From positions 54,294,153 through 54,358,152 of the forward strand of contig NC_090390.1 of NCBI RefSeq assembly GCF_036365525.1: a stretch of DNA of 64,000 nucleotides. The letters run 5' to 3'. The DNA is from Heterodontus francisci (Eukaryota). Positions 2,456-52,510 of the stretch are shown here, in pieces. The position numbers and the translations under genes are program-made. The notes under the pieces were generated by a model. It saw only the letters and a list, made by a program, of their open reading frames with translations. It was not told where the DNA came from and made no database searches. The first letter of the stretch is position 1; each line of letters begins with the position of its first letter.

Positions 2456-2600
2456 AAAAACCAAAATCAAAGCAAAATGCTGCGGATGCTGGAAATCTGA
2501 AATAAAAACAAGAAATGCTGGAACCACTCAACAGGTCTGGCAGCATCTGTGGAAAGAGAATTAGAGTTAACGTTTCGGGTCAGTGACCCTTCTTCGGAAC
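2456..2600 (-). mobile_element. Penelope-like terminal repeat with minimal hammerhead motif (2564-2600)
   Basis: Reverse complement gtt-CCGAAGA-a-gggtc-act-gaccc-GAAA-cgtt-aactc. Same unit recurs at least 8 times. Confidence 0.75.
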
Positions 2601-3619
2601 CCTAGCCATTCTGTATTTGCCAATCTGATAGTTGGAGGTTCAGCTGAGAACTATTTAGGCCTCTTCCTCTCTCATCCTCACTATATCCTTTTCCTTCTGA
2701 ACAATCCCGATTACCTGTTGTACCTGTATTGGCTTATCCTCCTCCCTGTGATAATATTGCTTGAACATATTGATGTGACACAACTGGTTCTTCTGGCGAT
2801 CAGGGGTGTCAATCAACTAATCTACCTTACCCACTCTTTTTTGATCATTTTATATAGGCCACTGAACTGTGATTTTAATGGTTTACCCTGTAATGGTAGC
2901 AATACCGATATTTGATCCCCGGTTGAAAATTATGGGTTTTTGCATTCTTGTCTGCCCATTTTTTCATATTGGCTTGGGATGCTTTAAGGTGTTCATGAGC
3001 CTTTCCTGGAACACAGATACAAAGTCCAGTATCGCAGTTCCATTCTTTTGTTCCAAGAATCTTTTTTGAGTTTTAGAGGACCTCTTACTTCATGTTCGTA
3101 AACCAGTTGAAAGGACTGAAGCCTGTAGACTTATTAAGTGAGTCTCTAGGGGTAAATAAGAAAATCTAGTCCTTTATCCCAGTCATGCAGATATTCGTGA
3201 CAGTATGTTCTCAAAACAATGATTAGAGTTTGGTGGTATCTCTCTAAAGCTCTCTGTGATTGTGGGTAATATGTTGAAGATTTCAACTGTCTGATACCCA
3301 AATTACCCATGACTTCTTGAAATACCTTAGACATGAAATTAGAACCTTGATCTGATTTGAACGTCAAGTGGCAAACCATATCTCATAACAAATTGGGTTC
3401 ACTTTTCTACTATTTTAGCAGTAATTGTCCTCAAAGGAATGGCCTTTGGAAATCGAGTAGCCATATCCATGACAGTAAGTATGTATTGTCCCGCTTTTGT
3501 TTTTGGCAAGGGTCCGACACCATCTACCAATACCCTGCTAAATGGTTCCTCAATCACCTGGTATGGGAACTAGTGGTGCTGGTTTTATGGTAGGTTGCAG
3601 TTTTCCCACCATTTGTACG

Positions 3620-5452
3620 AAAAATGAGGCTGAAGCATTTGCAACAATCATCAGCTAGAAGTGCCGAGGTCCTGATTCATCTGTGCCTCCTCTTGAAGTC
3701 CCCACCATCACATGCCAGACTTCAGCCAATTCAATTCACTCCGTGTGATATCACGAAACGACTGAAGCCACTGGATAGTGCAAAGGCTCTGGGCCATGAC
3801 AATATTCCAGCAATAGTACTGAAGACCTGTGCTCCGGAACTGGCCGCGCCCCTAGCCAAGCTGGTCCCAGTACAGCTACACCACTGGCATCCACCCGGCA
3901 ATGTGGAAAATTGCCCAGGTATGTGCTGTACACAAAGAGCAGGACAAGTCCAACCAGGCCAATTACTGCCGCATCAGCCTACTCTCAATCATCAGTAAAG
4001 TGGTGGAAGGGGTTGTCAACAGTGCCCTCAAGCGGCACTTGCTTGGCAATAACCTGCTCAGTTTGGGTTCCGCCAGGGCCACTCAGCTCCTGATCTCATT
4101 ACAGCCTTGGTTCAAACATGGACAAAAGAGATAAACTCATGAGGTGAGAGTGACTGCTCTTGACATCAAGGCAGCATTTGACAGAGTATGGCATCAAGGA
4201 GCCCTAGTAAAACTGAGGTCAATGGGAAATGGGGGGAAACCCTCCGCTGGTTGGAGTCATACATAGCACAAAGGAAGATGGTTGTGGTTGTTGGAGGTCA
4301 ATCATCTGAGCTCCAGGACATCACTGCAGAAATTCCTCAGGGTAGTGTCCGAGGCCCATCCATCTTCAGCTGCTTCATCAATGACCTTTCTTGAATCATT
4401 AAGTCAGAAGTGGGGATGCTCGCTGATTGCACAATGTTCAGCACCATGTGTGACTCCTCAGATACTGAAGCAGTCTGTGTAGAAATGCAGCAGGACTTGG
4501 ACAACATCCAGGCTTGGCTGATAAGTGGCAAGTACCATTTGCGCCACGCAAGTTCCAGGCAATAACCATCTCCCCATGACATTCAATGGCATTACCATCG
4601 CTGAATTCCCCCACTATCAACATCCTAGGGGCTACCATTGACCGGAAAGTGAACTGAAGTAGCCATATAAATGGGTACTATCTGTGTGGAGTTTGCAAGT
4701 TCTCCCTGTGACCACGTGGGTTTCTGCCGGGTGCTCCGGTTTCCTCCCACAGTCGAAGATTTGCAGGTTGATAGGTAAATTGGCCATGGTAAATTGCCCT
4801 AGTGTAGGTAGGTGGTTGGAGAATTTGGGGTTAATGTAGAATTAGTATAAATGGGTGGTTGTTGGTCTGCACAGACTTGGTGGGCCGAAGGGCCTGTTTC
4901 AGTGCTGTATCTATACATACACACCACCCCACCCCACGCACACCGCACCCTCCTGACTCCCCAAAGCCTGTGCATCATCTAGAAGGCACAAGTCAGGAGT
5001 ATGATGGAATACTCTCCCCTTGCCTGGATGGGTGCAGATCCAACAACACTCAAGAAACTTGACGCCATCCAGGACAAAGCAGCCCGCTTGATTTGTACCC
5101 CATGTATGTACCATCTACACGATGCAATGCACCAAGGCTCCTTAGATAGCACCTTTCAAACCCACGATCTCGACCAAGTAGAAGGGCAAGGGCAGCAAAT
5201 GCATGGGAACACCACCACCTGCAAGTTCCCCTCCAAGTCACACACCATCCTGACTTGGAACTATATTGCCGTTCCTTCACTGTCGCCGGGTCAAAATCCT
5301 GGAACTCCCTTCCTAATAGCACTGTGGGTGTACCTACCCCACATGGACTGCAGCAGCTCAAGAAGGCAGCTTGCCACCACCTTCTCAAGGGCAATTAGGG
5401 ATGGGCAATAAATGCTGGCCTATCCAGTGACACCCACACCCATGAATGAACA
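3620..5452 (+). mobile_element. CR1-group LINE, family B (RT fragments WKIAQVC, PQGSV, MEYSPLAW; 3' tail gggcaattagggatgggcaataaatgctggcc)
   Basis: Frameshifted RT ORFs 3624-5411 and a recurrent 3' end. Confidence 0.9.
4672..4914 (+). mobile_element. 5'-truncated HE1-like V-SINE inside the LINE
   Basis: Matches the body and tail of the SINE copies at 33318 and 43401. Confidence 0.85.
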
Positions 5453-5799
5453 GCACTAGTTTCAGCCCGTTTTTACACACAGATTGTTACAGTACACCAT
5501 GTGACCCCTCTCTCCTGCTGTGACCATGGAGCAGGTGCAGCTGGCACACTGCCTTGTAGATGTTTTAAAGGCACACTTTTTAAAGTTAAAGGCACACACT
5601 GTTTTAATCTGAGGAGAAAATAACTACACTTCTGTAACAACATGCTGTGATCATAGCCAATCGAACAGGTTTTCTTGAGTTTAACAAAGAGTTTAGCTTT
5701 ATTATACTAAAAATCATCTAATTAAAAATAAAATACGCTGCAACTCTCCTCTCTCTCCCCCTCCCCCCCTCTCTCTCTTCCCCCCCCCCCCCCCCCCAA

Positions 5800-6850
5800 A
5801 CCTGTCAATGCCCCTCATAATTTTGTAAACCTCAATCATGTCCCCCCTCAGCCTTCTCTGCTCTAAGAAAAACAATCCTTGCCTTCATAGCTGAAATGCT
5901 CCAGCCCAGGCAACATCCTGGTGAATCTCCTCTGCACCCTCTCCAGTGCAATCACATCCTTCCTATAGGGTGGTGCCCAGAACTGTACACAGTACTCCAG
6001 CTGTGGCCTAACTAGTGTTTTAGAGAGCTCCATCATAACCTCCCTGCTCTTATATTCTATGCCTCGTCTAATAAAGGCAAGTATCCCATGTGCCTTCATA
6101 ACTACCTGTGCTGTTGCCTTCAGTGATCTATGGACAAGTACACCAAGGTACTTCCTAGGGTCCAACCATCTATTGTATATTTCCTTGCCTCGTTAGTCCT
6201 CCCAAAATGCATCATCTCACACTTCTCAGGATTAAATTCCATTTGCCGCTGTTCCGCCCATCTTCCCAGCCCATCTCTATCATCCTGTAATCTAAGGCTT
6301 TCCTCTTCACTATTTACGACACCACCAATTTTCGTGTCATTTGTGAACTTACTGATCATACCTCCTATATCCACGTCTTAATCATTACTGTACTCTACAA
6401 ACAGCAAGGGTCCCAGCACCGATCGCTGTGGTACACCACTGGTCACATGCTTCCACTCACAAAAACAAACCTTGACCATTACTCTCTGCCTCTTGCCACT
6501 AAGCCAATTTTGGATCCAATTTGCCAAATTGCCCTGGATCCCATGGGCTCTTACCTTCTTAACCAATCGCCCATGTGGGACCGTATCAAAAGCCTTACCA
6601 AAGTCCATGTAGACAACATCAACTGTTTTACCCTCATCACATCTAGTCACCACCTCGAAAAATTCAATCAAGTTTGTTGGACACGATCTCTGCCAGACAA
6701 AGCCATGCTGACTATCCCTGATTAATCCCTGCCTCTCCAAGTGGAGATTAATCCTGTCCCTCAGAATTTTTCCCAGTAGTTTTCCAACCACTTATGTTAG
6801 ACTCACCGGCCTGTAATTACCTGGTTTATCCCTGCTACCCTTCTTGAAAT
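5800..6850 (-). mobile_element. CR1 LINE (HER1-like) RT fragment
   Basis: ORFs with DFGKAFD, PQRSVLGP, RPQLEYCVQFW. Confidence 0.9.
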
Positions 6851-7399
6851 ATAAGAGTTATGCAGTCTGTGGAGATTGGTGACTTGGCTGCTAGCTTTGG
6901 GCTGAATTCAGTGCTCGTGCAACTTTCCTTTGGTCCTGAGATTTCCAGTTTGAAGATGCGAATGGCTGATTCGGGGATACTCTGGGAAGCAGCAATGTGG
7001 CTGAATTCCTTCAAGGGAGTCTCTTTTTTCCAGATCCTTTTCAAAATTCTCTAGCTCCACCTTCAGGCTTAAGTAATTAAGCAGTGAACATCAATTGGTA
7101 AACAGATTAACGCCATCATCCAACACGGTGGGGCGGCGTAAAATTCAGCCTATTGTGTCTTTTCCTGTCCTCAGTACCCTTTCAGCCTTTTCTCAATGTG
7201 CACTGTTTTTAGCTTCAGGTAGGCAACTCACCATGCTCTCGTAGTTATTCTTAGAAACACGTAAGGCCATCCACTTTCCTGATCAGAGGGCCCATATAAT
7301 CAGTCTTCCTCTGCCTTACTGTTTGCAGCTTTTTCAGAGTTTCTAACAATTTATTTTCCTTTGATCTGGTTTCCTTCTGAAGTATTAGTGCATCTTGTA

Positions 7400-7530
7400 T
7401 CAAAAGCAAAATACTGCAGATGTTGAAAATTTGAAATAAAGGCAGAAAATGCTGGTAATACTCAACAGCTCTGGCAGGATCTGTGGAGAGAGAAAGAATT
7501 AACGTTTCAGGTCTGTGACCCTTCATCTTA
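7400..7530 (-). mobile_element. Penelope-like terminal repeat, degenerate hammerhead
   Basis: Same unit as 2456-2600. Confidence 0.7.
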
Positions 7531-7597
7531 TCTGCAATTTATCTGTTCATCATTATTATAATCTGTAGTTGCACAGACTCCATACCATTTTTTCTAT

Positions 7598-8484
7598 TGT
7601 CATGCAGACCCCACGTGCCAAGAATGAGTCTAATTAATTTTTTCATATGAACGTTGATTTTAAACTGTTGCTGGAGTGAAGAAGTTACTTGTTTGAAGAT
7701 CACCAGACACTGGGCTGGAAGGACATTTGCATACTAAAAGACGCAGCTTGAGGAGACAAAGGGCTATTCCCTGCTCCAATTAACCCAAATGGATTTTGAT
7801 CACCAGACATTGAAGGGGTAAGGAAGCACATTCCAGGCCCTGCTAAAATGATACAATCCACAGAGCCAGAACTGGTTAAACCAGCTGGTCACATGACTAA
7901 CTGGCTGGTCCAGGTTTTTTGAACTAGCCACAGGACAGGTTGAATTCAGAAGCAGTGTGCAACTGAAGCTGAAACAAGCAAGACGCGCCGATCTGCCCCT
8001 CTCCCTCTCCCTCTCTCACTTTCTCCCAAGCCACCGGACCCACGGAAGACACGTGAACCTTGAGAGAAAAGACTCCTACATCAGAACAAGTTGAAGCGTG
8101 AACTGGGCCCCAACGAATTGCAAGACTTACTGGCAATTAAAGACTCCACATTGAACTTAAAGGACTGTAACTAACAGTTATTGCCTCAAACTTTTCCCCT
8201 TTATTCCTTCTACTTTTTCTGTGTTTATCGTTTATGCGTGCTAGCGTGGTCGTGTCATTTGTAATTGTTAACCAGATTAGAGTTTAAGATTAATAAACTT
8301 CTACCTTTTCTTGTTTAAATCTAAGGAAACCTGTTTGATTTCTTTGCCTTACAATTGGAGCAGTGAACAAGGATTCACTGTGGGGGAGCTAAAAACACGA
8401 TGTTTTAAAATTAAACCCTGTTACGGTTAAACCAGGCAAAGGCTGAGAGGGAACCTCTAGTACCCTTTTCACCTGGTTGTAAAA
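7598..8484 (+). mobile_element. Solo LTR (tgtcatg...ctggttgtaa family), 4-bp TSD CTAT
   Basis: TG start, internal AATAAA, CTAT at 7594-7597 and 8485-8488. Confidence 0.88.
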
Positions 8485-8719
8485 CTATTGTTGCCAAGTT
8501 AATACATTCAGTAACCTCCCTTTCATTGGTTTCCCTCAGCACTTATTTTTTCTTGGCAACCTTTAAATGGATGTAACAAACTCTAGCTCCAGTCTTCAAT
8601 GACTTGATCTCAAGATTAATTTCATTAATTTATAATGAGTCATTTATGGAGTCTCAAAATAATTCTCATTCTTAATGATCCCTTCATTTTTTTGCCTTAG
8701 CTGTTAAGTTCATGTATCA

Positions 8720-11700: not shown

Positions 11701-11880
11701 CTTTCCATACCTCTAATTTTATGCTTCCAAAACCACCTATCTTTGTGCTGTTGCCAAACTTAGAGATGTGGCTTTTTATCCCATTATCCAAGTTGTCAAT
11801 AAACACAGTGACTAGTTAAGGTCCCAACATAGATCCCTGTGGGTGCCAATTGGTGTACCTACCCATTATCACTACTTCTG
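8720..11880 (-). mobile_element. Degenerate CR1 LINE (3' end to endonuclease) interrupted by family-B LINE
   Basis: CR1 3' terminus at ~8720. RT and EN remnants on the minus strand. Confidence 0.75.
9358..10070 (-). mobile_element. Family-B LINE fragment
   Basis: MEYSPLAW ORF 9481-9738. Confidence 0.85.
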
Positions 11881-11892
11881 TTATAATCCGTT

Positions 11893-12750: not shown

Positions 12751-12819
12751 CCCTTCCTTACGGTCTTTTATAATTAGGGTTTTTTTTGCATCCTTGCCTA
12801 AAAGCCTCCTGCCATTGGG

Positions 12820-14046: not shown

Positions 14047-14214
14047 ATTATTTTTGAAATGAATGATTAATTACAGCCTACGTGTGCAGTCGAATGTGAT
14101 TTGAAGGACGATTGCTACCTCACTGAAAGCTAAGTAATCTTTTTATTTGTAAGGAGTGAATTGATGGCTTTTATTGAAAAGAACTAATATAACAAATCTC
14201 AACCACAGTTCTTT

Positions 14215-14550
14215 TTGGACAACAGGTGCCAATAATTGTGCTGCTGTTGCCATTTACAGCTCCTTAAGACACAACTTTTGTTTCTTGTCCCATTACCACT
14301 CCCTTTTGCCTTGCACCATCATCTTTTTTGTCATTTAATTTTTCCTGCCTTCCACCCGATCACAGACCTTCCTTTTTTGTTCTTTCCTCCCTCCCCGCCC
14401 CCCCCTTTCTCTGACTCTATACTTGCATAAAAACTGTTGCATCTCTCCTTCCAGTTCTAACAAAAGGTATTGACCTGAAATATTAACTCCATTTCTGTCT
14501 CCACTGATGCTGCCTGATCTGAGTATTTCCAGCACGTTTTGTTTTTATAG
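14215..14550 (+). mobile_element. Penelope-like 3' region with decayed hammerhead unit
   Basis: Pyrimidine-rich leader followed by the shared unit (...gacctgaaatattaactc...gagtatttccagca). Confidence 0.6.
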
Positions 14551-18545: not shown

Positions 18546-18659
18546 CAAGTTATGCTGTTTCTTAGCAGAGGGAGTTACACACTGGTTTCCTGGGGTAAGT
18601 TAATGTAAGTATTTTTGGTGCAACTCTGGTTGACTTGAGTGTGGAAACTGTAAGTTGCT

Positions 18660-20260: not shown

Positions 20261-20269
20261 TCAACAAAA

Positions 20270-26750: not shown

Positions 26751-29460
26751 TATTTTTTTTATTTTTTTTATTTCCAAAATATACTTTATTCATAAAAATC
26801 TGCAAAAATTACATTGCCAAACAGTTTCCAAACAGCACCAAAAAATACAAACATTGCAAGGGAGATCAGTTTCCTTCAATACTGTCATGTGTTTCTTCCC
26901 AACCCTTCCGTTTCACAATTGTCATGTCAATTACAGTTTTACATTTACAGCAATTGAGAATATTAACGATACAGTTCGAGGGGTTTCCCATGGATCCAGC
27001 CCCTCAGTCCAGCTTGGTGGGGGAACCTTACACTGTGGTCTTTCCCCATTGAGCCTTTGCTGCGGCTGCCCCAAGCTTTAGTGCGTCCCTCAGCACGTAG
27101 TCCTGGACCTTGGAATGTGCCAGTCTGCAACATTCGGTGGTGGACAATTCTTTGCGCTGGAAGACCAGCAAGTTTCGGGCAGACCAAAGGGCGTCTTTCA
27201 CCGAATTGATAGTCCTCCAGCAGCAGTTGATGTTTGTCTCGGTGTGCGTCCCTGGGAACAGCCCGTAGAGCACAGACTCCTGTGTTACAGAGCTGCTTGG
27301 GATGAACCTTGACAAAAACCACTGCATCTCTTTCCACACCTGCTTTGCAAAGGCACATTCCAGGAGGAGGTGGGCGACCGTCTCTTCCCCACCACAGCCA
27401 ACGCGGGGGCACTGTGCGGAGGGGGCGAGACTTCGGGTGTGCATGAAGGATCTGACGGGGAGGGCCCTTCTCACCACCAGCCAAGCTACGTCTTGGTGCT
27501 TGTTTGAAAGTTCTGGTGATGAGGCATTCCGCCAAATGACTTTGACGGTCTGCTCGGGGAACCATCCGACAGGATCCACCGTTTCCTTTTCCCGTAGGGC
27601 CTTGAGGACATTCCGTGCAGACCACTGCCTGATGGACCGGTGGTCAAAGGTGTTTTTCCGCAGAAACTGCTCCACGAAGGATAGGTGGTACGGCGCCGCC
27701 CAACTGCATGGTGCGTTCCGCGGCAATGTGACCAGGCCCATCCTTCGCAACACTGGGGACAGATAGAACCTCAGCACGTAGTGACACTTGGAGTTTGCGT
27801 ACTGGGGATCTACACATAGCTTGATGCAGCCGCACACGAAGGTGGTCATCAGGATGAGGGCCACGTTGGGTACATTTTTCCCGCCCTTGTCCAGAGATTT
27901 GAACATCGTGTCCCTCCGGACCCGGTCCATTTTAGATCCCCAGACGAAGCGGAAAATGGCTCGGGTGACTGCCACGGCGCAGGAGTGGGGTATGGGCCAG
28001 ACCTGCGCCACGTAGAGCAACAACGTGAGCGCCTCGCACCTGATGACCAGGTTCTTACCCACAATGGAGAGAGATCGCTGCCCCCACATGCCCAACTTTT
28101 GTGGTACCTTGGCTACTCGCTCCTCCCATGTTTTGGTGCACGCCCCGGCACTTCCGAACCATATCCCGAGCACCTTCAGGTAATCTGACCTGACGGTGAA
28201 GGGGACAAAGGATCGGTCAGCCCAGTTCCCAAAGAACATGGCCTCGCTCTTGCCGTGGTTAACTTTGGCTCCCGAGGCCAGTTCGAACTGGTCGCAGATG
28301 CTCATCAGTCTGCGCACGGACAGCGGATCCGAGCAGAAGACGGCGACGTCATCCATGTACAGGGAGGTTTTGACCTGAGTGCCTCCGCTGCCTGGGATTG
28401 TCACCCCTCTTATGCTCGCATCCTTCCTAATAGACTCAGCAAAGGGTTCAATACAGCAAACAAACAAGACCGGGGACAGAGGACAGCCCTGTCTGACTCC
28501 AGATTTGATCGGGAAACTTTCAGATTCCCACCCGTTGATTGAGACTGCGCTACTGATGTTTGTGTAGAGCAGTTGGATCCAATTGCAGATTCCCTCCCCA
28601 AACCCCATTTTGGAAAGCACGTCCATCATGTAGGTGTGCGATATCCTGTCAAAAGCCTTCTCCTGGTCCAGGCTGATGAGGCAGGTGTCCACCCTCCTGT
28701 CCCGTACGTAGGCGATCGTATCCCTGAGTAGCGCGAGACTATCAGAGATCTTCCTGCCGGGTACAGTACAGGTCTGATCGGGGTGAATCACCAACTCCAG
28801 AGCAGACTTGACTCGACTGGCTATGACTTTGGACAGAATCTTGTAATCAACATTAAGCAGTGAGATGGGCCGCCAATTTCTGATTTCTGCCCTCTCCCCC
28901 TTCTGCTTGTAAATGAGGGTGATGATGCCTTTTCTCATGGATTCTGACATGCTGCCGGCCAGGAGCATACTCTCGTATACTTCCAGCAGGTCCGGGCCGA
29001 CCCAGTCCCACAGGGCCGAGTACAACTCGACCGGTAAGCCGTCGCTCCCGGGGGTTTTACTCGTCTCGAAAGACTCGACGGCCTTTGTCAGCTCGTCCAG
29101 AGTTAGCGGCTTGTCCAGTCCCTCCCTCCTGCTGTCATCTAAGACCTCTGTGATAGATGACAGGAAGGACTGGGAGGCTCTGCTGTCTGTGGGCTTCGCG
29201 TCATACAGCCCAGCATAAAAGGATTTGCTGATCCTTAGTATGTCGGACTGCGAAGACGTTACCGAGCCATCTTCTTCCTTCAGGCTGCTGATAACAGAGC
29301 TCTCTGTGTGTACCTTTTGGAAGAAGTAACGCGAGCACGTCTCATCCTGCTCGATGGAGCGGACTCTGGACCGGAAGATGATCTTGGAGGCCTCCTTGGC
29401 AAAGAGCGAGGCCTGCTGGCTCTTCACCTCTTGGAGGTCCTCCTTGACCTCGACCTCGAC
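26751..29460 (-). mobile_element. Young 5'-truncated Tx1/L1-clade LINE
   Basis: Poly(A), AATAAA, 3' UTR and an uninterrupted ORF2 frame. CpGs intact. Confidence 0.93.
27028..29427 (-). CDS. Tx1-like ORF2 remnant: reverse transcriptase plus C-terminal Cys/His knuckle, endonuclease truncated
   Basis: PGSDGL, NWRPISLLNVDYK, LDQEKAFDR, GVRQGCPLSP, YMDD, CPRVGCGGEETVAHLLLEC. Frame is open to the junction at 29460. Confidence 0.9.
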   Translation of the reverse strand: MKSQQASLFAKEASKIIFRSRVRSIEQDETCSRYFFQKVHTESSVISSLKEEDGSVTSSQSDILRISKSFYAGLYDAKPTDSRASQSFLSSITEVLDDSRREGLDKPLTLDELTKAVESFETSKTPGSDGLPVELYSALWDWVGPDLLEVYESMLLAGSMSESMRKGIITLIYKQKGERAEIRNWRPISLLNVDYKILSKVIASRVKSALELVIHPDQTCTVPGRKISDSLALLRDTIAYVRDRRVDTCLISLDQEKAFDRISHTYMMDVLSKMGFGEGICNWIQLLYTNISSAVSINGWESESFPIKSGVRQGCPLSPVLFVCCIEPFAESIRKDASIRGVTIPGSGGTQVKTSLYMDDVAVFCSDPLSVRRLMSICDQFELASGAKVNHGKSEAMFFGNWADRSFVPFTVRSDYLKVLGIWFGSAGACTKTWEERVAKVPQKLGMWGQRSLSIVGKNLVIRCEALTLLLYVAQVWPIPHSCAVAVTRAIFRFVWGSKMDRVRRDTMFKSLDKGGKNVPNVALILMTTFVCGCIKLCVDPQYANSKCHYVLRFYLSPVLRRMGLVTLPRNAPCSWAAPYHLSFVEQFLRKNTFDHRSIRQWSARNVLKALREKETVDPVGWFPEQTVKVIWRNASSPELSNKHQDVAWLVVRRALPVRSFMHTRSLAPSAQCPRVGCGGEETVAHLLLECAFAKQVWKEMQWFLSRFIPSSSVTQESVLYGLFPGTHTETNINCCWRTINSVKDALWSARNLLVFQRKELSTTECCRLAHSKVQDYVLRDALKLGAAAAKAQWGKTTV

Positions 29461-30780: not shown

Positions 30781-30999
30781 TGAGAGGACTAGGTGGTGAG
30801 ATTTGTTGAGTTGCTCTTGTCGAGAGCTGGCATGAACACAACAGGTGGAATAGTCTCCTTCTGTGCTCCCACTGGTCTATGATATAAATAGGTGGTGTGT
30901 TGTAAGTCAGTTTTGCAAATAAAAAATACGGCCACCTTATCCGAAATGTAACAAGCTGTTTCGACATTTTACCAAGGCTCAGGCTATCTCCTTTTTCCT

Positions 31000-31500
31000 A
31001 GATACAAGCCGTACCCGAACCGCCACCCACCACAGCATCTTCACTGACGGCGGCTAGTAACGCAGATCTTTCCGGTTGCGTGGCGCGCAGACCAGCCTCC
31101 GTCACGTGGGTCACACGCGCCTATTTAAACGGTCATCGGGAACACGCATGCGTTGGTTCCAGTGAGATTAGCAGCTTTAGAAGGAGCGGTGAAGGTGAGG
31201 AGGAGCATGAGCACTCTTTCGGCTGATTCGGATAACCTGTTTTTTTCCTCGGGTTGGGCCACATCGCATCGGCGCGGTTAATTGTAACTCGCTTGGAAAT
31301 GCCGGATTTTGACGCGATTTCTCGGCTGCCTGTTTCTCCCTTACTCCGTCTGCAGACAACGATGAATTAACTTGTTCACTCCTGGCCCCTGCGATGTGAT
31401 TAATTGTAAATGAAGGGAACGCTGGATGTCCCACCCCGCTGGTAATTGGTCGATCTGCCAATTTATAAGGAAGTAAAGTCATTTCTATCTGTTATGGCGA
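31000..31500 (+). promoter_or_regulatory. OAT: CpG-rich OAT promoter: E-box GTCACGTG (31101-31108), TATA-like TATTTAAA (31122-31129), palindrome ACGCATGCGT (NRF1-like, 31144-31153), ETS-like TTCCGGTT (~31070)
   Basis: Main non-repeat CpG-dense stretch in the window. Motifs read directly, and it is followed by a splice donor 4.7 kb upstream of the first coding exon. Confidence 0.75.
31152..31194 (+). other. OAT: Probable non-coding exon 1 of OAT (TSS approximate)
   Basis: Starts ~30 nt after the TATA-like box and ends at donor GAAG|GTGAGG (GT at 31195). Vertebrate OAT has a non-coding first exon. Confidence 0.6.
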
Positions 31501-31510
31501 TGAAAAGATA

Positions 31511-31820
31511 GCGCAGTGGTTAGCACCGCAGCCCGGGTTCGATTCCTGGTACTGCCTGTGCAAGTTCTCCCTGTGTCTGCGTGGGTTTTCTCCGGTGCTC
31601 CGGTTTCCTCCCTTAAGCAAGATTTGCATTTTGATAGGTAAATTGGCCATTATAAATTGTCACTAGTATAGGTAGGTGGTAGGGAAATATAGGAACAGGT
31701 GGGGATGTTTGGTAGGAATATGGGATTAGTGTAGGATTAGTATAAATGGGTGGCTGATGTTCGGCACAGACTCAGTGGGCCGAAGGGCCTGTTTCAGTGC
31801 TGTATTTCTAAGCTAAAAAA
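31511..31820 (+). mobile_element. HE1-like V-SINE
   Basis: tRNA A/B boxes, central domain and gggccgaagggcctgttt tail. Confidence 0.88.
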
Positions 31821-32129
31821 TAGCAGAGCAGTTAAATGTGTTCGAGTGTTCTGTATTGCCAGCCATTGAAGAAAGCTAGTGTACAGGGAATAGTGAAGTC
31901 TGTGTTTGCAGTTTGCTTTAAGCCTGTTTGTGGACACTTGGATGATTTCAATAGAGTTGTGGATGTATTTTGGTATACTTCAGCAGAAGTTAGGATGGCT
32001 ATAAATCATGCAGCTCTGAGATATTAAGGCCAGGTTGAAAGCCCACTTAATGGTAGCAGGGGAGCTGTTTTATTTTGACTTTGGAGCATATTCAAACCAA
32101 AATGAATGTTGCTACAGCTGAAATGTGGG

Positions 32130-32799
32130 TGTTAGTGGGAATGAATCTAGAAGAATCACTCGACACTCAGGTCTGCTCCAATGTTAAACAGTTTATTGAG
32201 TTACGCCAGCGGGGAGCAGGTCACTAGTCTGTCCAGATGCCTCTCCACTGAACAAAGGTTCCGATGAAGGGTCACTGACCCGAAACGTTAACTCTGCTTC
32301 TCTTTCCACAGATGCTGCCAGACCTGCTGAGTGGTTCCAGCATTTCTTGTTTTTATTTCAGATTTCCAGCATCTGCAGTATTTTGCTTTTATGTAAAGGA
32401 AAATCCACAACAGATATACTCAGCCCATCCCGGCTGGACATAATCCAATCATAATGGTTATTGATTACATACATTACACATATTACCAATTAGATTACTC
32501 ATTAGGCATCAGGTGGCTACGTGATCAGCTCATAGCAAGCCCCCTGATCATCTTGTGATGTTTCCCAGACCCCCTTATCAACTACCCTTGAGTCTTCACA
32601 ATGAATCCTTTTACCTTTCTCAAGCTTGCATTCCTGATTGCTTCGTGCAGTCTGCAGTTACACAAAGCAACTGTCTTATACACTGATATGAGGGACCCTG
32701 CTTGGTCAGCCCAACTGTCTGTGTCTACTTACTCAAATAACATTTAAACAGTATGATATTTACTGCAGGTGCCTCTGCACTTGGGAATACCCTACAACA
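32130..32799 (-). mobile_element. Solo LTR (distinct family), 4-bp TSD TGGG, in OAT intron 1
   Basis: tgttag...ctacaaca termini. TGGG at 32126-32129 and 32800-32803. AATAAA on the minus strand at ~32193. Confidence 0.8.
32258..32392 (+). mobile_element. Penelope-like terminal repeat with hammerhead motif (32258-32294)
   Basis: gtt-CCGATGA-a-gggtc-act-gaccc-GAAA-cgtt-aac. Confidence 0.78.
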
Positions 32800-33292
32800 T
32801 GGGTTTCAGGTTACAAGCTCCTCAATTGTGAGTTTGCAGGGAGCTGATTGGTCTGTACAGTATTTACCCCAAGCTGTTAAACTGTTAAAAATATTTTTTT
32901 AGAAAATGTGTACTATGCTTGGTTGCTTTGCAACTCCTGCTTGCCATTTGGGGAATGCTGGGGTCCAGGTGAAACATGGTTATGTTTACTGCAAGATCTC
33001 AGTTTAATGCAGTCTTTTATATAAAAAAAAATTGTCATTTTATAAATGGGCTGCTTATTTAAAGTGCTTTTTTGTCTTGTAAATGTTTGGTTTTAGAGGA
33101 AGATGGTAGCTTATATAAATATTCAAGATATTTTGGTTGCAGGATGATTTGTAGATTACTTGAAAGTTGGCATGCATCATGAAGTATTTTCTGTAATGTA
33201 TTCCTTTTGATATCAAGGGTGTATTAAACCCACTGACCAATCAGCAACTCAGTTGCTGCAGTTGCCTCACTCCCTTCACAACACTTTGACAA

Positions 33293-33749
33293 GTAAAAAC
33301 AAGAAATGCTGAAATATGGGCGGCACAGTGGCGCAGTGGTTAGCACCGCAGCCTCACAGCTCCAGCGACCTGGGTTCAATTCTGGGTACTGCCTGTGTGG
33401 AGTTTGCAAGTTCTCCCTGTGTCTGTGGGTTTTCGCCGGGTGCTCTGGTTTCCTCCCACCACCGAAGACTTGCAGGTTGATAGGTAAATTGGCCATCATA
33501 AATTGCCCCTAGTATAGGTAGGTGGTAGGGAAATATAGGGACAGGTGGGGATATGGTAGGAATATGGGATTAGTGTAGGATTAGTATAAATGGGTGGTTG
33601 ATGGTCGGCACAGACTTGGTGGGCCGAAGGGCCTGTTTCAGTGCTGTATCTCTAAACAAAAAAATAAAAACCACTCAACAGGTCTGGCAGCATCTGTGGA
33701 AAGAGAAACAGAGTTAACATTTCGGGTCAGTGACCCTTCTTCGGAACTC
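33293..33749 (-). mobile_element. Penelope-like hammerhead repeat split by a SINE
   Basis: aaaacaagaaatgctgaaa...[SINE]...ccactcaacagg...cttcggaactc. Confidence 0.75.
33318..33670 (+). mobile_element. Full-length HE1-like V-SINE
   Basis: gggcggcacagtggcgcagtggttagc head, B-box ggttcaattc, LINE-derived tail. Confidence 0.92.
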
Positions 33750-33924
33750 AATGTTAGACAAGTGTTGGGTGGTTCTGCCAAAACCTATTTCTTAAGATTC
33801 ACGGACATCAAAAGCAACTGTTTTTGCCAGAGACAATATTTAAATGCAGTGTGGTGTTTGATGGTGCTGTTAGTGATTTTAATTCTTGTGTTCAAGTGTT
33901 GTAATGAAAGATTATTATAAATAC

Positions 33925-34000
33925 AGAAAGCAGGTCAGGTAGTATCTGTGGAGGGGGAAGTAGTTAACTATTCAGGTTGATGACCTTTCATCAGAAACTT
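33925..34000 (-). mobile_element. Older Penelope-like repeat with canonical CTGATGA core
   Basis: Reverse complement tttCTGATGAaaggtcatcaacctgaatagttaac. Confidence 0.55.
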
Positions 34001-34457
34001 TCTTTTGCTAAATATATTTTCAGGAACATGGTTATGGTTTATTCCAGGCTCAGTAATTGTAGGCATGTCGTTCAGAGTTTTTGTTCCTGGGAGTTGAGTT
34101 ACAAAAGGGCATTCATTGGTTGTAACTTGCCTTTCAATCTGGTCCTAGTGTTCAAGTTTCCATGAAAACGCTTGATGTTCTGATCTAATAACCCAGAATT
34201 TGTTCCAAAATGGTGAATATTTCTAGGTCACTTTGGGTATTGTTTGAAATGTAATTACAAAGTTTAGGATTAAGTTTATTTTATCATAGAAATCAAATTT
34301 TTGCTGTCTAATGTTTCTGTTAGGATGGGCTACAAAATAAAGCTTGCTTTATATAGAGTAAGCAGTTTTTTCAGAAACTTGATTGTGGTTAGCAGGAGTG
34401 ATGGTTTAAAACATCATATCTAGGTGCTTTTAGTAGCAAGAAAGGCACAAATGGTCT

Positions 34458-34646
34458 AGAAAATGCTGGAAATACTCAAATCAGCCAGCATCTGTGGAGA
34501 GAGAAAGAATTAACATTTCAGCTCGATTGACCTTTTGTCAGCACTCTGAAATGTACTCTCCCTGAGACGTTAACTCTGTTTATTTTCTTTCTCCACATAT
34601 GCTGCTTGACCTGAGTATTTCCAGCATCTGCTGTATTTTGCTCTTG
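34458..34646. mobile_element. Inverted pair of Penelope-like repeats
   Basis: Minus unit followed by plus unit, giving an imperfect hairpin. Confidence 0.7.
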
Positions 34647-37787: not shown

Positions 37788-38012
37788 GAGTTTATGTCTG
37801 GGATGTTGAAGGCAGGCGGTACTTTGACTTCTTGAGTGCTTACAGTGCTGTAAATCAAGGCCATTGTCACCCAAAGATTATTGGAGCACTTAAATCTCAA
37901 GCTGATAAATTGACTCTCACTTCACGAGCTTTCTACAATAATGTACTGGGAGAGTATGAAGAATATGTGACGAAGCTGTTCAATTACAAGAAGTTGCTGC
38001 CAATGAATACAG
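37788..38012 (+). CDS. OAT: OAT coding exon 2 ([29 protein letters not shown]...LPMNTG)
   Basis: ttttcag acceptor, G|GTTAGT donor, 225 nt, class-III aminotransferase motif [13 protein letters not shown]. Confidence 0.98.
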
Positions 38013-44073: not shown

Positions 44074-44555
44074 ATACCATGTCTCTGAATGCGTGGCCAT
44101 TGTTAGACAATGGTGTTTGAATGTTAGTCTTCTTGATAAAGTGGTGGTTGGCCATACCTATTATCCAGAGTGAGTCTAGAGCCTCCAGGTCTGCAAAGGT
44201 CATTTTTAGTCCAACTGGTTGAAAAAGGTGCCCATTAACATTGAATGGGGCCATTAGCACTTGTGGGGGAATCCTGAACTAGGGGGCATAGTTTTTAAGA
44301 CTGAGATGAGGAATTTCTTCTCAGATGGTCAGTAATCTTTGTTCTTTGGGGAAGAGAATTCCAATGGAGACTGGGTCGTCGAATATATTCAAGGCTGAGC
44401 TAGACTGATTTTTGATCTACAGCAGAGTCGAGGGTTATGGGGGTCAGCAGGAAAGTGGAGTTAAGGCCCCAATCAGATCAGCTACGATCTTGTGTATTGT
44501 TGGAGCAGGCTCAAGGGGCTGAATGACCTACTCCCGTCTTATCTTGTGATCCAGC

Positions 44556-45379
44556 TGTTGACCAGGGGCTGCAAGAAATACAGAATCAGTTACAAACTGC
44601 GGATTGTTTGACCTGTAGTAACCTGGAGTTCAGACACTGGCCTGTGCTGGTAAAAACCTGTTTGAACTAATTACTTTGAGACAAGTCAAAGGATCGATCA
44701 CCGGAAAAGGGCCTTATTTGGACACTGTGTGATACCGGGATGTTTGGGCCTGGGCCAATTAAGAGAAGATGTGAACGAGGTGAGCAGGCTTCAGCCGACC
44801 GGAAACACACCGCTCCGATTTGAAGAGATGAGCAACAGAATAAGAGAGCTTTTTGGGCATCGAGCCAGCGAAAACTCCGGAGATCAACCATCATGGAAGT
44901 GGAAGACCCTGCGTGAGCAACGCGGCGACGACGTAGAAGAGAGAGAGAACGGAATGCCTGGTCAGCGTTAACTCTCCCTTTTTCGGGTATTATCCTTAAG
45001 TTTTCTGTGACTCAGTCAGGGAAAGGTCAGAGGAACCTAGTGGCTGCTTATGAATTCTAGCTAGTTTTGTTATTAACTGTATAACTCAGTTGGAGTTGCA
45101 TGCTTTTGTCTAATTATATAAGCCTTATTCTTACATTGTACAACAACGTGAATAAAGTAAATTGATAGTTAAAGAAAGGACTTAGTTCCTCCTCTTTGTA
45201 CTAAGCCATTAACTGTAGCTGTGGATTAAGCTGGAGGGTGGCTCTCCAGTAACCTGATATCCCAAACACTCAGCCTGAGCCTGAATTAAGAGGACTTCAG
45301 TCCCACGTGACGGCCAGGATCAAGTGGGTGCAGGGAATAAAGGGGACAAGGGGGAGTTGACTCCGCACCACGGTTTACA
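44556..45379 (+). mobile_element. Young solo LTR (third family), 4-bp TSD CAGC
   Basis: tgttga...tttaca termini, cagc on both sides, AATAAA 45151-45156, CpGs retained. Confidence 0.85.
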
Positions 45380-45389
45380 CAGCCCTTTC

Positions 45390-47540
45390 ATTGTTTACTT
45401 CTATCAAGTCTGTGGTGCTTTAAAGTTATTAGGCACAGCTCTTTAAGCTGATCTGAGTGATTAAGATTCTTTTATGGGTCATTCTTGTAGCTCTCCTCTG
45501 AACCTTTTCTAAGGCCATAATATCACTCCCTATGTGAGGGGTCTAAACTGGTCACAGTTCTGCAAATGTGGTTTAACCGACAACTGTTACAATGACAGAG
45601 TGATATCCCTGATTTGTACTGAGTGGTTCCATTAATACAACTTTATCCTATTTGCTTTGACTGCAATTTTTCTGCATTGGTAGTGAACCTTGACCAATCC
45701 GAACAAGACCACTGAGATTTTTTTCTCCGCTACTTTCAGTATCATTTCCTGTAAGTAAGTATATTCTGTGTTGATCCTACCCATATGCACCACATGACGT
45801 TTAACAAAGATAAATGCAATTTGCCATTGTTTAGCCCATTCCCCAGTGCATGTAAATCTTTTTGCAGCTGATTACTCCTGTATAGCCTTGACAGTTTAAC
45901 AAATTTTAGTTTTGTCCGCAAACTTACTGATCATACCCCAGTCACTACTGTCAGGTCATTAATAAAAAGTGTGGCCCTGACAGCAATCCCTGGGGAACAC
46001 CACTCTTAACCAGCCTGCAGGTTTATCTACAACCTTTGACTACAATTTTCTTTTTGCCTGTGGGATTGGAGCTATTTCCTTATCCAGGTATCAAATTTCC
46101 ACTGATGCCATACAATTCCACTTGGTGAAGTAATTTATTGAAGGCTTTCTTGAAAATCCAGTAGACAATGTCAATTGGATAAACTAATCTAGTTAGTTCT
46201 TCAAAAAAAAAACTCATCGAGTTTGCAAGGTACAACCAACCTTCTTTTCTGTAAGACGTGTTGAGTATCTGCAATGGCCCCTTCTTTATTGCGTGATTTA
46301 CAAAGGGCATCCCTAATGATAAGCATCTTTGCTATGATGGATGTCATGTTGATGGATTTGCACTTCCCCAGCTCTGCTATGTCCTTTTATTTGTTTGAAA
46401 ATTGGAACTGCATGAGTTACCTAAGGCAATTATCCCTGATTCTTAGTGAAGAAAAGGGCAAGAGGGTCATGTATTTCTTTGTGTAATCTTAAGCAACACA
46501 ATGAGGTATGTGGATTCCAGTTTCGTGAAGATCTCTAGAAGGTTTATTAACAGCTAAAACTAATACAATACAGAATCTGCATCCAGGGCATTGCAGTGCA
46601 GAGTGCTTATGGCTTAGTCACAAGAGTACATCCTGGTACTTGGCTTATTAGCATAGCATACTGAGTTCTTAAAGGGACATCACTCCGACAGCGAATATAC
46701 AACAGTTCACAGCACCTGTCCCATCTCTTTAACCACACTGGGTGGATGCCATTTGGGTCTGGAGCTCAATGTCTCTTTTCATATTTCCTATCCAAGATGA
46801 CATTTCTTATCTATTATATGTAATGCAATGCATCCTACAGTTGAAACATGAACGCTATCCACGTGATAGACTGGTGTAAATAGTCATTTAACAGCTCTGT
46901 TATAAATCCAGGAATTTGCCCTAAATTGTCTTTCAATGGCCCCTTGTGAATTCTAACAGTCTAATGACTCCAGATGTAGCTGAAAAAGCTTTTGCTATTA
47001 CGATAATTCTTTTCCAGTTTGCGTTCTCCCAGTTGTCTTAAAGTTAAATTCCCTACATTTGTAAAATATTTTCGGCTTCAGTCTAATTTGACTCTGCAAG
47101 TTTCCAGTTACCAATAATCTTGCTTTGACATGTTCTTTTGAAACATTAGTTTGGCTTTCACTGCTATATACAGTTTTTAATGCACATCCCACTACTGAAA
47201 TTATTAATTGGCCTTTGCACGATTCTCCCTTCTTGCAACTGCTTGTACCTTTTGCTGTTGGTTTTCAACCACCTTTAAGTTTTGCTGATATTTCTCCATA
47301 AATGTGCTTGCATTCCACATTTTTAAAGTTGTCTAACATTAAATGGACAAACGCTCCATGTTTGTTCTTCCATGGAGCTCTTGTTCTAAAATTTGTTTCT
47401 GAAGTCTTGCTCATCTATATTGCTTTGTGGCTTAGTTTTTATTTGCCTTCAGATTGTTGACCGGTCTAATCTTGACCTGACTAGTTTTAAGTTTTCAGCT
47501 TATTTAATGAAACAGTGTAAAGTAATTACTCAAATATTGG
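45390..47540 (-). mobile_element. Old CR1 LINE, with a possible short LTR at ~46482-46704
   Basis: DIVYWIFKKAFNKL and GVPQG remnants. Confidence 0.65.
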
Positions 47541-47547
47541 GAGTAAC

Positions 47548-48132
47548 TTTTTTAAATTCATCCATGGGACGTGGGCGTCACTGGCTAGGACAGCATTTAT
47601 TGCCCATCCCTAATTGCCCTTGAAGTTGGGGGTGAGCTGCCTTTTGAACTGCTGCAGTCCATGTGGGGTAGGTGCTAACTGTGCTGTTAGGAAGAGAGTT
47701 CCAGGATTTTGACCTAGCGACCGTGAAGGAATGGTGATTTTATAGTTCCAAGTCAGGATGGTGTATAGCTTGGATGTGGTGGTCGTCCTGTGCAGCTACT
47801 GCCCTTGTCCTTCTAGGTAGCGGTCACGGGTTTGGAAGGTGCTGTGGAAGGAACCTTGGTGAGTTGCTGCAGTGCATCTTGTAGATGATACACATTGCTG
47901 CCACTGTGGTGGAGGGAGTGAATGTTTATTGATGGGGTGCCAATCAAGCAGGCTGTTTTGTCCTAGTTGGTGTCGAGCTTCTTGAGTGTTGTTGAAGCTG
48001 CACCCATCCAGGCACGTGGAGAGTATTTCATCACACTCCTGACTTGTGCCCTGTCGATAGTGGATAGGCTTTGGGGAGTTACTCGTTGCAGGATTCCTAG
48101 CCTCTGACATGTTCTTGTAGCCACGATATTTA
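47548..48132 (-). mobile_element. Family-B LINE 3' fragment
   Basis: Shared tail and body. Confidence 0.87.
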
Positions 48133-48139
48133 GTGTATT

Positions 48140-51100
48140 TTATTATTAATCACTTAAGGCACTTGAATTGAATTTTGTCACAGCAGTGGTGACTGGCTGG
48201 GATGCAGGTGTGATGGATAGCGTTGGGATGGAAGTCTGACATTCTCACGCTGCTAAAGGATATTTCCCGAGACAGCTGCAGGAGATGCAATTTAAAGGCA
48301 ATTTCACAAAGTATTTACAATTTTGTGAGAACAGCGGAGCTTCAGAGGCGGAAACTCAGTGGAAGGTCCGTTTTGGCTGCAGTTAGCAGTGCCTCATTTC
48401 CTCTGGTTTTGAGACCTCCAGTGAGGAGAAGCATCAGAGAGGGAGAGAACTACAGCCATCAGGAGTGAGGCTGCAGCACCCAGAGGGGCATCAGAATCAT
48501 GAGACTGGAAGGGGGCACAGGGGCTCACAACCAGCCTCTTGTGTGCAGAAGATGTTGCCCACCAGAAAAGCTTCATGGTCAGAAGCTCTGCTTCTTGCGA
48601 ATGTCAAATTGGTGTTGCCAAAGACTCTGCATCACCATGGAGGTGGTATTGAGCTGTGTCATGATAGAGGAGGAGCTGAGTCAAATGGGAAGTGGCAGGC
48701 ACCCATGCGTGTGGTGGTGAAGGTCATAGTGGTGTTGAAGTGTTACACCTCTGGATCATTCTCGGAATCTCATGGAGACACCTGTGGGATTTTGCAGTTC
48801 ACGGCTTATCGGTGTGTCAAGATGGTCACAAATGCCAAGTTCGAGGGCTGGCCAATACGTGCACTTTTGCACTGATCCAGACAGGAAGGCTGAGGGCTAT
48901 AGGATTTGGGGTCATAGCTGAATTCCCCCAGGTGCAAGGTGTATCGACTGCACACATCAAGGCTCGCACAGACCAGGCAACAGCCTTCATCAACAGGAAT
49001 GGCTTCCACTCACTCACTGTGCAAGTGGTTTGCAACGATCACAAATGCTTCCTTCAAGCCTGTGCAAGGTTCCTAGGATGCAGTCATGACTCCTTCATTC
49101 TAAGGAGGTCCCAGGTGCCTGGGCTTTGCGAGCACTGCCCCTTCCCTGCCCCCCCACAAGGCGTGCCTTCAAGGATGGATATTGGGTGTCAAGTGCTAGT
49201 CCCTGAAGGCATTGCTCCCCATGATGCGGAACCCCAGCACAGATGCATAGGAGACATAGAACAGTTGCCACCTGACAAATCGCGACCATTGAGCAGGCCA
49301 TAGGGCTTCTGAAAATGCAGTTCAGATGCTTTGGATCTGGTGGATCCCTTCATTATGCCCATCAAAGGTCTCTTGTATGGTAGTGTGCTGTTTTCTGGGG
49401 AAGCATTGGCCAATCCTAGAGCACGATGTCTCCTCCAAGGATGAATATTTTGGAGGGGGCTGATGGTCACTAATTGACATTTCTCACGAGCATTCCTCAG
49501 ATGGTCATGTAAACAAATAAATCTGCTACCTTCTGTAGCCAAGTTGCCCTTTTCCTTGAATGCCCTTACCATCCCATGACATTAGGTTAGCCATAGATAA
49601 TGCATTGATCTAATGTGGTGTGGACCTTTCCATCACAGTCTTTATAAAAGCAACTGAACTGTTAATGGCCCAATAGTACAGAAATGCTTAAAGTATTCAT
49701 TTGCTTGCACATGTTGAATATAGATTCTACTCATACTTCTAGATCTCTCAATTTCATTCCAAGCTATTTTAACACCATTGATGGTTTTTGGTTACTGAGT
49801 TGGATGATCAGCCATGATCAAAATGAATGGCAGAGTAGGCTTGACGGGCCGAATGACCTACTCGTGCTCCTGTTTTCTATGTTTCTATTTTGTGGTGCAG
49901 CATTCATAAATCCTTCAACACCAAGGCGTCCCAGTACCTGTGCAAGAGCCACCTCTGTCTTCGCAGCTTCATGAGGTATTGGTGCCATTGTCAGAGGACT
50001 GGGGTCCACACCAGGAGTGTCTTGAGAGGAGCTCCCTGTTGCTTCAGGCAGCCGCTTCTCTACCCTTGCAGGGTTCACTTGTCCCTCCCTGAAATATGGA
50101 CGCCTGACTATGACTCCAGGCGTCTTGCCCAGCTATTCCTCCACAGAGCTCATGGCAGAGGTGATGGCATACAGATCCATGTGCATTACTGGCATCCACT
50201 GATATGCTGAATGTGGCTCTCCATGAGGGTCACCCTCAATGGTGTATGCCATGCATGTATGCACCAGAGACGTGGCTAGACTCATGACCTGGAGTAACTC
50301 CTCCATTATTCGTGCATAGATGCGCAAAGCCTCTGGAAGCACTGCCAGATGTTCACACACCTCATGCTGCAGCTGAGGATCACCATGCCCTCCCATTGTC
50401 CTGAGTGTCAATGACTGCAACGGTCACTTCCTACACCAGCTGCTTGGGTGAGACGTGCTGTTCTAATCAAATTGTGCTCCCAGTGCTGTTTGTGAACAAC
50501 TGCCCACTGATTGTGAGAGTATCTGTGCTGGTGGAGGAATGTAAGGCTGCATCTGTTGAGGTCTACTGCTCCATTAGAAAGTTGTCCTGTAGGCTTGGCA
50601 GCTGTCTCTTCAACTGACCTGAGAGTGTAATGATGGGAGGGCACTGCCCGTTCACAAGTCCTTCCGACTACTCATCCTCTGGTGCTCTGAGGTGACCATT
50701 GATGGCTTCATGAGTGCTATGCTTATTGGCCACGAGAGGGTGTATTTCCCTCAATCCATTCGGGCACTTGTCTGGCAGCTCTTCATCTGTCTCATCAGCG
50801 ACAGGCTGCCCTGCCTCCAGACCTCCTAGCTCCATGATCTCCTCTTCCATTGGCATCTGGACTGGACTGCCAGATATAGCATGCTGCCTCTTGTCCTCTT
50901 CCTCTCGAATTGTGAGCTTGTTTCTCCTGCAAGCACATAAATTAACATTGTTACTTGTTCATACGCTCACACCATGCCTTCTGTTGATGACCACATCATT
51001 GTCCATTTATGCCACAGGGATGCCTGCTGCACATAGCATTTCAGTTCAGGCAGTGCAAAAGTCAACTCTGATCAGTGTCCTCGACAGATGCAAATATACA

Positions 51101-51320
51101 TTTGGTAGCCAATGCTACTGTCTGGGTATTGCTGACTGGGTGGGCACTCCAATTTCATATTACTTTTTTGTGACATTTTAAGGCTGCCAGCTTAATGTTA
51201 TGTGCTGCACTCGCCTTGCAAGACTGCATCAGATCATGGATCTTCTTCCTGCACTGCAGCAGTCTCCACCTATGCCCACTTCATCTGCCTAGCCTGCCCC
51301 TGTCACCCGCCCTGAGGGAA
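48140..51320. mobile_element. PIF/Harbinger DNA transposon relic: HARBI1-like DDE transposase (+, ~48480-49370) and convergent Myb/SANT-like gene (-, ~49900-51300)
   Basis: KVIVVLKCYTSGSF, FPQVQG, FINRNGFHSLTVQVVC, GCSHDSFIL. On the minus strand QCRKKIHDL at ~51232-51258. Confidence 0.8.
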
Positions 51321-51443
51321 AATGGGATCTATACTAGTTGCTGTTTTCAAGCAATCATTGTAACAATGGAACCTAAAAGCTTTTTCAGTGTGCCAGTAAA
51401 ATACAATCATGTGATGAGATCTTTTGGTCCTGTGATTTTATAC

Positions 51444-52196
51444 TGTCAGGCAAACCCCCACCTGCCAAGACTGAGGTACACATTATTTCACCACATGAAC
51501 ATTAAAACTTAAAAAGTGCAAGCTCCTGACTGGAAAGACATTTTTGCATAGTAAGAGACGGTGTTGAAACAATGGGGGCCCAGTAGTTGCTTCCCCAATA
51601 CACAGAAGTGGTCAGACCAGCTTCAGTCACATGATGAACTGGCTGTTGCGGAGGTTTGAGCTGAGTTTTAAATTGGAGAAAACAGTACTTGAGATCAAAA
51701 ACTGTGCTCGTGGACTGAACATCTCTCCTGCCTGTCTCCCTCCATCTCTTTCCCACTGAACTGAATCTTGTGAAGACATGTAAACTCAGGAAAAAGTCTG
51801 CTACGTAAATAAGGTTTAAAAGGAACACTGGGCCCCAACGAAATGAAAGACCATATCTTCAATCAAAGACTACAGCGAGCTCAAAGCACAGTAATGAGCT
51901 GACCTCAAACTTATCTTTTTTCTGTCCCTATTTGCCTGTGTGTATTGCATGTGCATGCTAGTGTGGGCTGCGTCATATCTGTATTACTGTTTAAACCTAA
52001 GGTTTAATAAATTTCATCTTTAAACCAAAGAAAGCCTGTTTGTGTTCATTTCTTTGCCTTATAATTGGAAAGTTGTGAACAAGGATTCACAAAGGGGGAG
52101 CTCAAAACACAGCATTTAAAATTAAACCCTGTTACAATGAGACGAGGTGAAGATAGTAACAGACCCCTGGATACCTTTTCTCACCTGGTCGTAACA
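51444..52196 (+). mobile_element. Solo LTR, sister of 39804
   Basis: tgtcaggcaaacccccacctgccaagactgagg...ggtcgtaaca. AATAAA 52006-52011. Confidence 0.87.
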
Positions 52197-52339
52197 GTAT
52201 TCATCATTTGAGTCCTGAGCTTTATTTTCTGGAAGGAATGAAAATCACGTCCAGAAGGATGGAATGGAGATCGTGAGCTACCCACTGTAATGCAGAGTGA
52301 AATTGAAAGGCGGGTAGAACATGACCTGAAATTTGGCAA

Positions 52340-52510
52340 ACAAAAACAAGAAATGCTGGAATCACTCAGCAGGTCTGGCAGCATCTGTGGAAAGAGAAGC
52401 AGAGTTAACGTTTCGGGTCAGTGACCCTTCTTCGGAACCTGCCTGCTGAGTGATTCCAGCATTTCTTGTTTTTGTTTCAGATTTCCAGCATCCGCAGTAT
52501 TTTGCTTTTG
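52340..52510. mobile_element. Penelope-like inverted insertion with 14-bp TSD CTGAAATTTGGCAA
   Basis: TSD at 52326-52339 and 52511-52524. Perfect ~36-bp inverted arms enclose an antisense hammerhead motif. Confidence 0.85.

Follow-up and report, generated by a model that had tools for sequence, protein, structure and literature searches.

The minimal type I hammerhead ribozymes of metazoan Penelope-like elements lie in pseudo-long terminal repeats (pLTRs). The published survey of these motifs (Cervera and De la Pena 2014, PMC4209133) describes a short helix I, a bulged base before helix II, a closing G10.1-C11.1 pair, a palindrome in place of helix III and H17, with two copies around a frame for reverse transcriptase (RT) plus endonuclease (EN) and most copies solitary; its alignment of 56 Penelope hammerheads has U4, never C4, in all 56 rows and U17 in 24, and the species it lists include no cartilaginous fish. 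Minimal hammerheads are described as weak even as dimers, and in the account of the PAc Poseidon element of Anolis (Frangieh et al. 2024, PMC11167929) hammerhead mutants still insert in vitro, the ribozyme being protein-assisted and, in that setting, dispensable for insertion. Here we describe copies of a short unit with the same hammerhead features that are dispersed through a 64,000-nucleotide stretch of the genome of the shark Heterodontus francisci (assembly GCF_036365525.1, contig NC_090390.1, positions 54,294,153 to 54,358,152; "the window" below), and in which the best-preserved copies have C at core position 4 (C4).

These repeats belong to an autonomous Penelope-like element, of which they are the hammerhead-plus-tail ends, and are not a separate short interspersed element (SINE). 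Their real oddity is C4, which is fixed in the youngest subfamily but seen in none of the 56 published hammerheads, and which is linked to the gain of the G10.1-C11.1 pair. We consider it likely that these ends were copied from uncut RNA, the C4 ribozyme of the youngest subfamily being predicted to be a weak cutter.

The first-pass annotation of the window had reported at least eight copies of the unit, and this is borne out. A 148-nt query from the complete element at locus L105 (below) matches ten pieces that amount to eight insertions (Table 1), and it matches nothing in 20 shuffled windows; arbitrarily chosen genome stretches totalling 590 kb hold 31 occurrences of the unit, which makes the window about threefold denser than average. 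Two pieces named in that annotation, at 33293 and 33711, are halves of a single insertion (33291-33748) that was split by a SINE at 33318-33668 and has a 7-nt duplication around the whole. Window positions 30784-34247 are duplicated ~97 kb downstream (L001, C20:54422013-54425148) with 97.5-99.5% identity, and since the SINE is absent from this paralogous duplicate it inserted after the duplication and is very recent. The young inverted insertion at 52328-52509 has an 8-nt duplication around both arms. A tblastn search agreed with the earlier statement that the window holds no Penelope open reading frame (ORF), and found no coding remnant.

All four young copies read CCGA(A/U)GA followed by a bulged A, a helix II of 5 bp capped by a 3-nt loop, and GAAA, and the earlier description of the four best-kept copies as sharing C4 and U17 is correct. 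The 5-bp stem I of the fold proposed for them (gagtt/aactc) is present in only one of the four; the stem I proper to the element is 4 bp (AGUU/AACU), and the letters further 5′ are flank. The palindrome proposed in place of stem III survives as ACGU followed by U17 in three of the four and is lost in the copy ending at 33748. The unit has the 4-bp helix I, a helix II followed by GAAA and closed by G10.1-C11.1 in young copies (G.U or A-U in older ones), the palindrome and an NUH triplet. The suggested Rfam search gave no hammerhead match in the window even at E ≤ 10, and identification came instead through the published minimal-hammerhead consensus; both the Penelope origin and the minimal type I class are supported.

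Exact matches to a 35-nt core pattern number 36,605 across the 6.0-Gb genome, against none for the reversed control. Among the first 30 of these matches in order of position, 15 extend upstream into a shared 3′ untranslated region and the end of a GIY-YIG frame, as the suggested linkage to RT plus GIY-YIG ORFs predicted, 7 are inverted pairs and 8 are solo copies. The parent element was found by walking upstream from core matches to long copies; a genome search by GIY-YIG family, tried as another route, gave a different Penelope family and one unrelated match. At locus L105 two hammerheads form direct repeats with a spacing of 3,298 bp, a 13-nt duplication encloses the entire element, and an open 916-codon frame starts 171 nt after the first hammerhead and stops 376 nt before the second. 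This single ORF encodes RT with a C-terminal GIY-YIG domain (motifs DKG, YIDD and YCIRC/YIGET). The CX2-5CxxC linker between RT and EN, a mark of Neptune and Nematis elements, is present in L057, P0003 and P0004, while one linker cysteine is changed in L105, so that its open frame is no proof of an active copy. Protein homologues are 45-70% identical, the closest named ones being from the shark Chiloscyllium punctatum (67-70%), and a PDB sequence search with the element protein returned no matches. Sixteen of 20 long copies gave a same-strand hammerhead, with CCGA in 16 of 16, and the C4 core is common to short, long and full-length copies. Inverted pLTR arms occur at L091, L094 and L104. With an RT plus GIY-YIG ORF, hammerhead-bearing pLTRs and an optional 30-40 nt tail, this is an EN-positive Penelope-like element.

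The C-terminal GIY-YIG, linker, pLTRs, inverted 5′ pieces and tail are those described for the Neptune/Nematis clade (Craig et al., bioRxiv 10.1101/2021.04.23.441226). As described for PAc Poseidon (PMC11167929), there are probably two internal RT starts, and there are an optional 30-40 nt tail and AT-rich targets, and that account likewise reports no genomic or RNA sign of cleavage-site ends; the anole element differs in having its start codon inside the core, where the shark element has it 171 nt after the core, and the shark element has the Neptune/Nematis-type Zn-finger linker and 3′ ends that often share A/T letters with the target. The non-LTR (long terminal repeat) retrozymes, as presented by Li et al. 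(bioRxiv 10.64898/2026.07.22.740005), have a type I hammerhead related to those of Penelope pLTRs and occur in one chondrichthyan, but they are tandem non-coding units, unlike the dispersed solo, inverted or ORF-linked ends seen here. We also note a second, distinct Penelope family with RT, Zn-linker and GIY-YIG frames (L052:634-1782, L053:1462-3243); in L052 an inverted pair of the hammerhead unit directly adjoins it.

The core of the youngest subfamily, CCGANGAA, accounts for 34,918 of the 36,605 matches and does not fit the CUGANGAH pattern, which the older subfamilies do fit. In the same young context U4 occurs 1,687 times, near the 1,441 found for G5 to A, the product of reciprocal CpG decay. 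This makes C4 the master state, with the U4 copies mostly due to decay; the idea that the U4 copies are a surviving canonical subfamily was mostly rejected on these counts, although the excess of 246 may be real. Among 74 aligned copies (from the window, arbitrary stretches, side matches and long copies; neither picked by core nor randomly sampled), 42 combine C4 with C11.1, 22 combine U4 with U11.1, and 5 are mixed. Three core types are found, U4/A10.1-U11.1, U4/G.U and C4/G10.1-C11.1, represented by 6, 4 and 7 of 20 copies when only the arbitrary stretches are counted. For the A-U type there are 2,614 exact matches; upstream of 12 of 30 of its loci lies sequence that matches the element protein, for the most part at 72-83%. 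The divergence of this type is 0.076 compared with 0.020 in the young subfamily, in line with the first-pass proposal that C4 was spread by a recently active lineage. Older copies read TG at positions 4-5 with no TG/CA mix, and U4 is therefore ancestral. The course of stem II from A-U through G.U to G-C makes it likely that the fold is still constrained, the ribozyme being more probably attenuated than randomly decayed. Several changes of the young lineage (position 4, 11.1 and the tail) are T-to-C changes that create CpG, opposite to the usual direction of decay.

U17, by contrast, had been put forward as a trait of the young copies and is ordinary. It is present in the older window copy at 33929-33996, in 50,048 of 50,762 young matches (as ACGU then U17) and in 25,757 of 26,570 older ones; it is ancestral here and within the published consensus, in which 24 of the 56 hammerheads have it. 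What seems new is a C4 core in a Penelope hammerhead, EN-positive Penelope-like elements with minimal hammerheads being known; no report of a U4C Penelope core was found in the literature, with Repbase and Dfam entries, subscription papers, bioRxiv supplements and one PMC4209133 supplement file outside the scope of that search.

The copies have well-defined ends. Among 77 3′ ends, 22 lie at +95 to +105 and 48 at +133 to +146, giving an optional tail of 34-35 nt. At the other end, 19 of 19 C4 solo copies break 0-4 native nt before the core and none at 5-9 nt, and the full-length copy L090 has the same 5′ start, inside a 12-nt duplication. Target-site duplications of 8-21 nt were present around 18 of 30 solo copies, compared with 40 of 300 random pairs at a threshold of at least 8 nt. 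Copy starts do not pile up at the cleavage site, and the majority of those that fall there are inversion joints. Among loci without U17, starts there were seen at 5 of 30 in the young group and 7 of 30 in the older, corresponding to ~119 and ~190 copies (~309), and at a control site 4 nt downstream at 8 of 30 (~404 copies), out of ~77,000 copies overall; these are counts from small samples that include a few internal deletions and seven young loci from one tandem array, and starts after a chance T are invisible in them. Because copies of both the C4 and the U4 subfamilies begin a few bases ahead of the core instead of at the cleavage site, the inserted copies are likely to derive from uncut RNA.

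The array in question (L131-L137, C1:235.8-236.1 Mb) is satellite-like, and an A17 element end inside it has been amplified with it (at least 18 among the matches listed). Where copies are inverted, the joint is often at a short self-complementary stretch of the hammerhead, either the upstream six bases that match helix II or stem I bases (L040, L108, L113, L116, L119, L120 and L122), which suggests microhomology-guided joining.

In the mechanism we favor, transcription would start at the base of stem I, where TCAGTT resembles an initiator. The element protein would nick AT-rich DNA and start reverse transcription inside the RNA at one of two sites. Priming in the leader copy would give the solo pieces of 100 or 135 nt, and priming in the downstream copy the long, variably 5′-truncated copies. 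Cleavage, 32 nt from the RNA start, would be rare, late or unneeded for insertion.

Several observations weigh against copying from uncut RNA by way of a weak C4 ribozyme, or against parts of it. Cleavage-site starts are scarce in the U4 subfamilies too, so their scarcity among C4 copies does not point to a loss in C4. An extra 5′ G, which weakly supports a capped end, shows only a modest excess, at 18 of 39 solo copies against 30% expected (p = 0.02; C4 alone 7 of 17, p = 0.22), in a count that leaves out L001-L020 (19 loci selected by a G-bearing query) and in which some five extended copies were wrongly classed as solo. In both subfamilies the sequence before the core resembles a 3′ splice site as well, so something else may account for the fixed 5′ end. 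The covariation that had been suggested as a check is present at helix II pair 10.1-11.1 as a single chain of events in one lineage, and none was seen in stem I. The downstream leader is conserved at least as well as the hammerhead. The Pfam matches of the L105 protein (RVT_1, E 2e-6; GIY-YIG, E 0.0013) are both below curated cut-offs. Finally, the public-run data used below are contigs, which carry no RNA start or end, strand or splice information.

Regarding splicing, three acceptor-like sites lie in L105:6050-6210 (-), one before the core (with a CTAAY motif, in both subfamilies) and others at +107 and +139, and both preferred 3′ ends are in U-tracts just before the latter two. In the Drosophila virilis Penelope, as described, an intron ends at the corresponding point of helix I. 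No spliced copies were seen among 16 leader-bearing loci, and a spliced-exon origin of the 5′ G's was set aside, since many copies have their duplications within 0-3 nt of the core, where a shared exon would not fit.

The alternative that survives best, though we think it unlikely, is that the C4 core is fully functional and selected, with G10.1-C11.1, ACGU dimers and protein help giving useful cleavage for RNA processing or turnover and not for setting 5′ ends. The linkage of C4 to the canonical G-C pair in the 74 rows agrees with this, as does the identity of ten other core positions across subfamilies whose proteins differ by ~20%, and the anole ribozyme is reported to require protein (PMC11167929). 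C4 is also the majority form, at 78-85% of depth, in public-run contigs under three organism labels (U4 15-22%; no row with C17; one metatranscriptome was included), and the variant is thus likely shared with relatives. The same core change in a viroid hammerhead is reported, at second hand, to lower activity in vitro considerably without abolishing it and to leave the viroid infective (PMC3088659, citing Ambros and Flores 1998), but there it is a rare variant of a full ribozyme with tertiary contacts, whereas here it is fixed in the master element, amplified ~35,000-fold and set in a minimal scaffold. Against full function stand the U4 of all 56 published representatives (whose search demanded U4), the low activity of single CUGA mutants (PMC9901934) and a predicted pairing of C4-G5 with the CG of the palindrome, which gives a non-catalytic fold.

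A more specific form of an active CCGA hammerhead in this subfamily seems to us quite improbable. Here U4C would be offset by G10.1-C11.1, and a six-base upstream segment would pair with helix II, confining folding of the ribozyme to RNA from the element's own start and keeping it off in read-through RNA. In predicted folds of RNA from the inferred start, helix I plus helix II is best, with helix II at probability 0.95-0.97, whereas in the young element helix II is displaced (0.02-0.16) once 8-40 nt of native upstream sequence are included. The median helix II probabilities with upstream sequence are 0.14 (13 young copies), 0.84 (9 decayed U4 copies) and 0.47 (7 older copies); the helix-II-pairing segment is not conserved in the older subfamily. 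If this is true, a U4C core would for the first time be fixed and mass-amplified, and a retroelement would have a ribozyme switch that depends on position. The separate idea that C4 removes a competing helix was not used, stem I medians being 0.47 vs 0.20 in 60-nt folds but only 0.16 vs 0.10 in 100-nt folds.

It is very unlikely that the ribozyme is dead or irrelevant family-wide, its sequence being kept as the overlap of an internal promoter and a protein-binding leader, with covariation by chance. Such a view would account for the absence of a class of cleavage-site starts in every subfamily, the equal conservation of the leader downstream, the CpG-creating T-to-C nature of both young changes, and single-copy folds no stabler than shuffles (z -0.6 to +0.9), but the variable positions are mostly ones that ribozymes tolerate (N7, loop II, the compensated pair) and the motif fits the metazoan consensus, including bulged A and palindrome. 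The suggestion that the short copies are a self-standing, non-autonomous SINE-like family spreading from solo copies, which are common, have fixed ends and duplications and contain the inferred start and both priming sites, is scarcely credible, as protein-coding copies have the same C4 core and A7/U7 variants, full-length L090 starts at the same base, and no head-to-tail arrays of the unit were seen among the loci examined (solo-specific diagnostic sites were not searched exhaustively).

Table 1. Pieces of the hammerhead unit in the window, with two other mobile-element remains (positions in the window; percentages are identity to the L105 unit)
Feature	Position	Strand	Remarks
Likely young LINE (long interspersed element) copy	27028-29460	-	810-codon open non-LTR RT frame with zf-RVT
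Transposase fragment	48680-49303	+	DDE_Tnp_4 (PIF/Harbinger-type)
Young solo copy with tail	2465-2600	-	Core 2565-2601: C4, G-C pair, U17; 94%
Old copy with tail	7402-7534	-	5′ part of core decayed; G.U pair, U17; 81%
Old decayed copy, tail-less	14452-14546	+	U4, U17; 73%
Young solo copy with tail	32258-32392	+	Core 32257-32293: C4, U7, G-C pair, U17; 96%
Young tail-less copy, 3′ half	33291-33317	-	Severed by SINE at 33318-33668
Same young tail-less copy, 5′ half	33669-33748	-	Core 33713-33749: C4, U17; palindrome broken by CpG-type change
Old fragment	33929-33996	-	U4, A-U pair, U17; 74%
Old inverted pair, left arm	34461-34552	-	U4, U17; 72%
Old inverted pair, right arm	34534-34638	+	69%
Young inverted insertion, core-bearing arm	52328-52438	-	Full core 52403-52439: C4, G-C pair, U17
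Young inverted insertion, second arm	52442-52509	+	Unit positions 65-132, with tail, without core; 99%

For the role of the hammerhead in Penelope elements, this family provides a natural comparison set of three successive subfamilies, the last of which (C4/G-C) was amplified to at least 35,000 copies. Should the C4 ribozyme be almost inactive, a very successful element has managed without efficient cleavage; should it be active, whole families are missed by descriptor searches in which CUGA is required.

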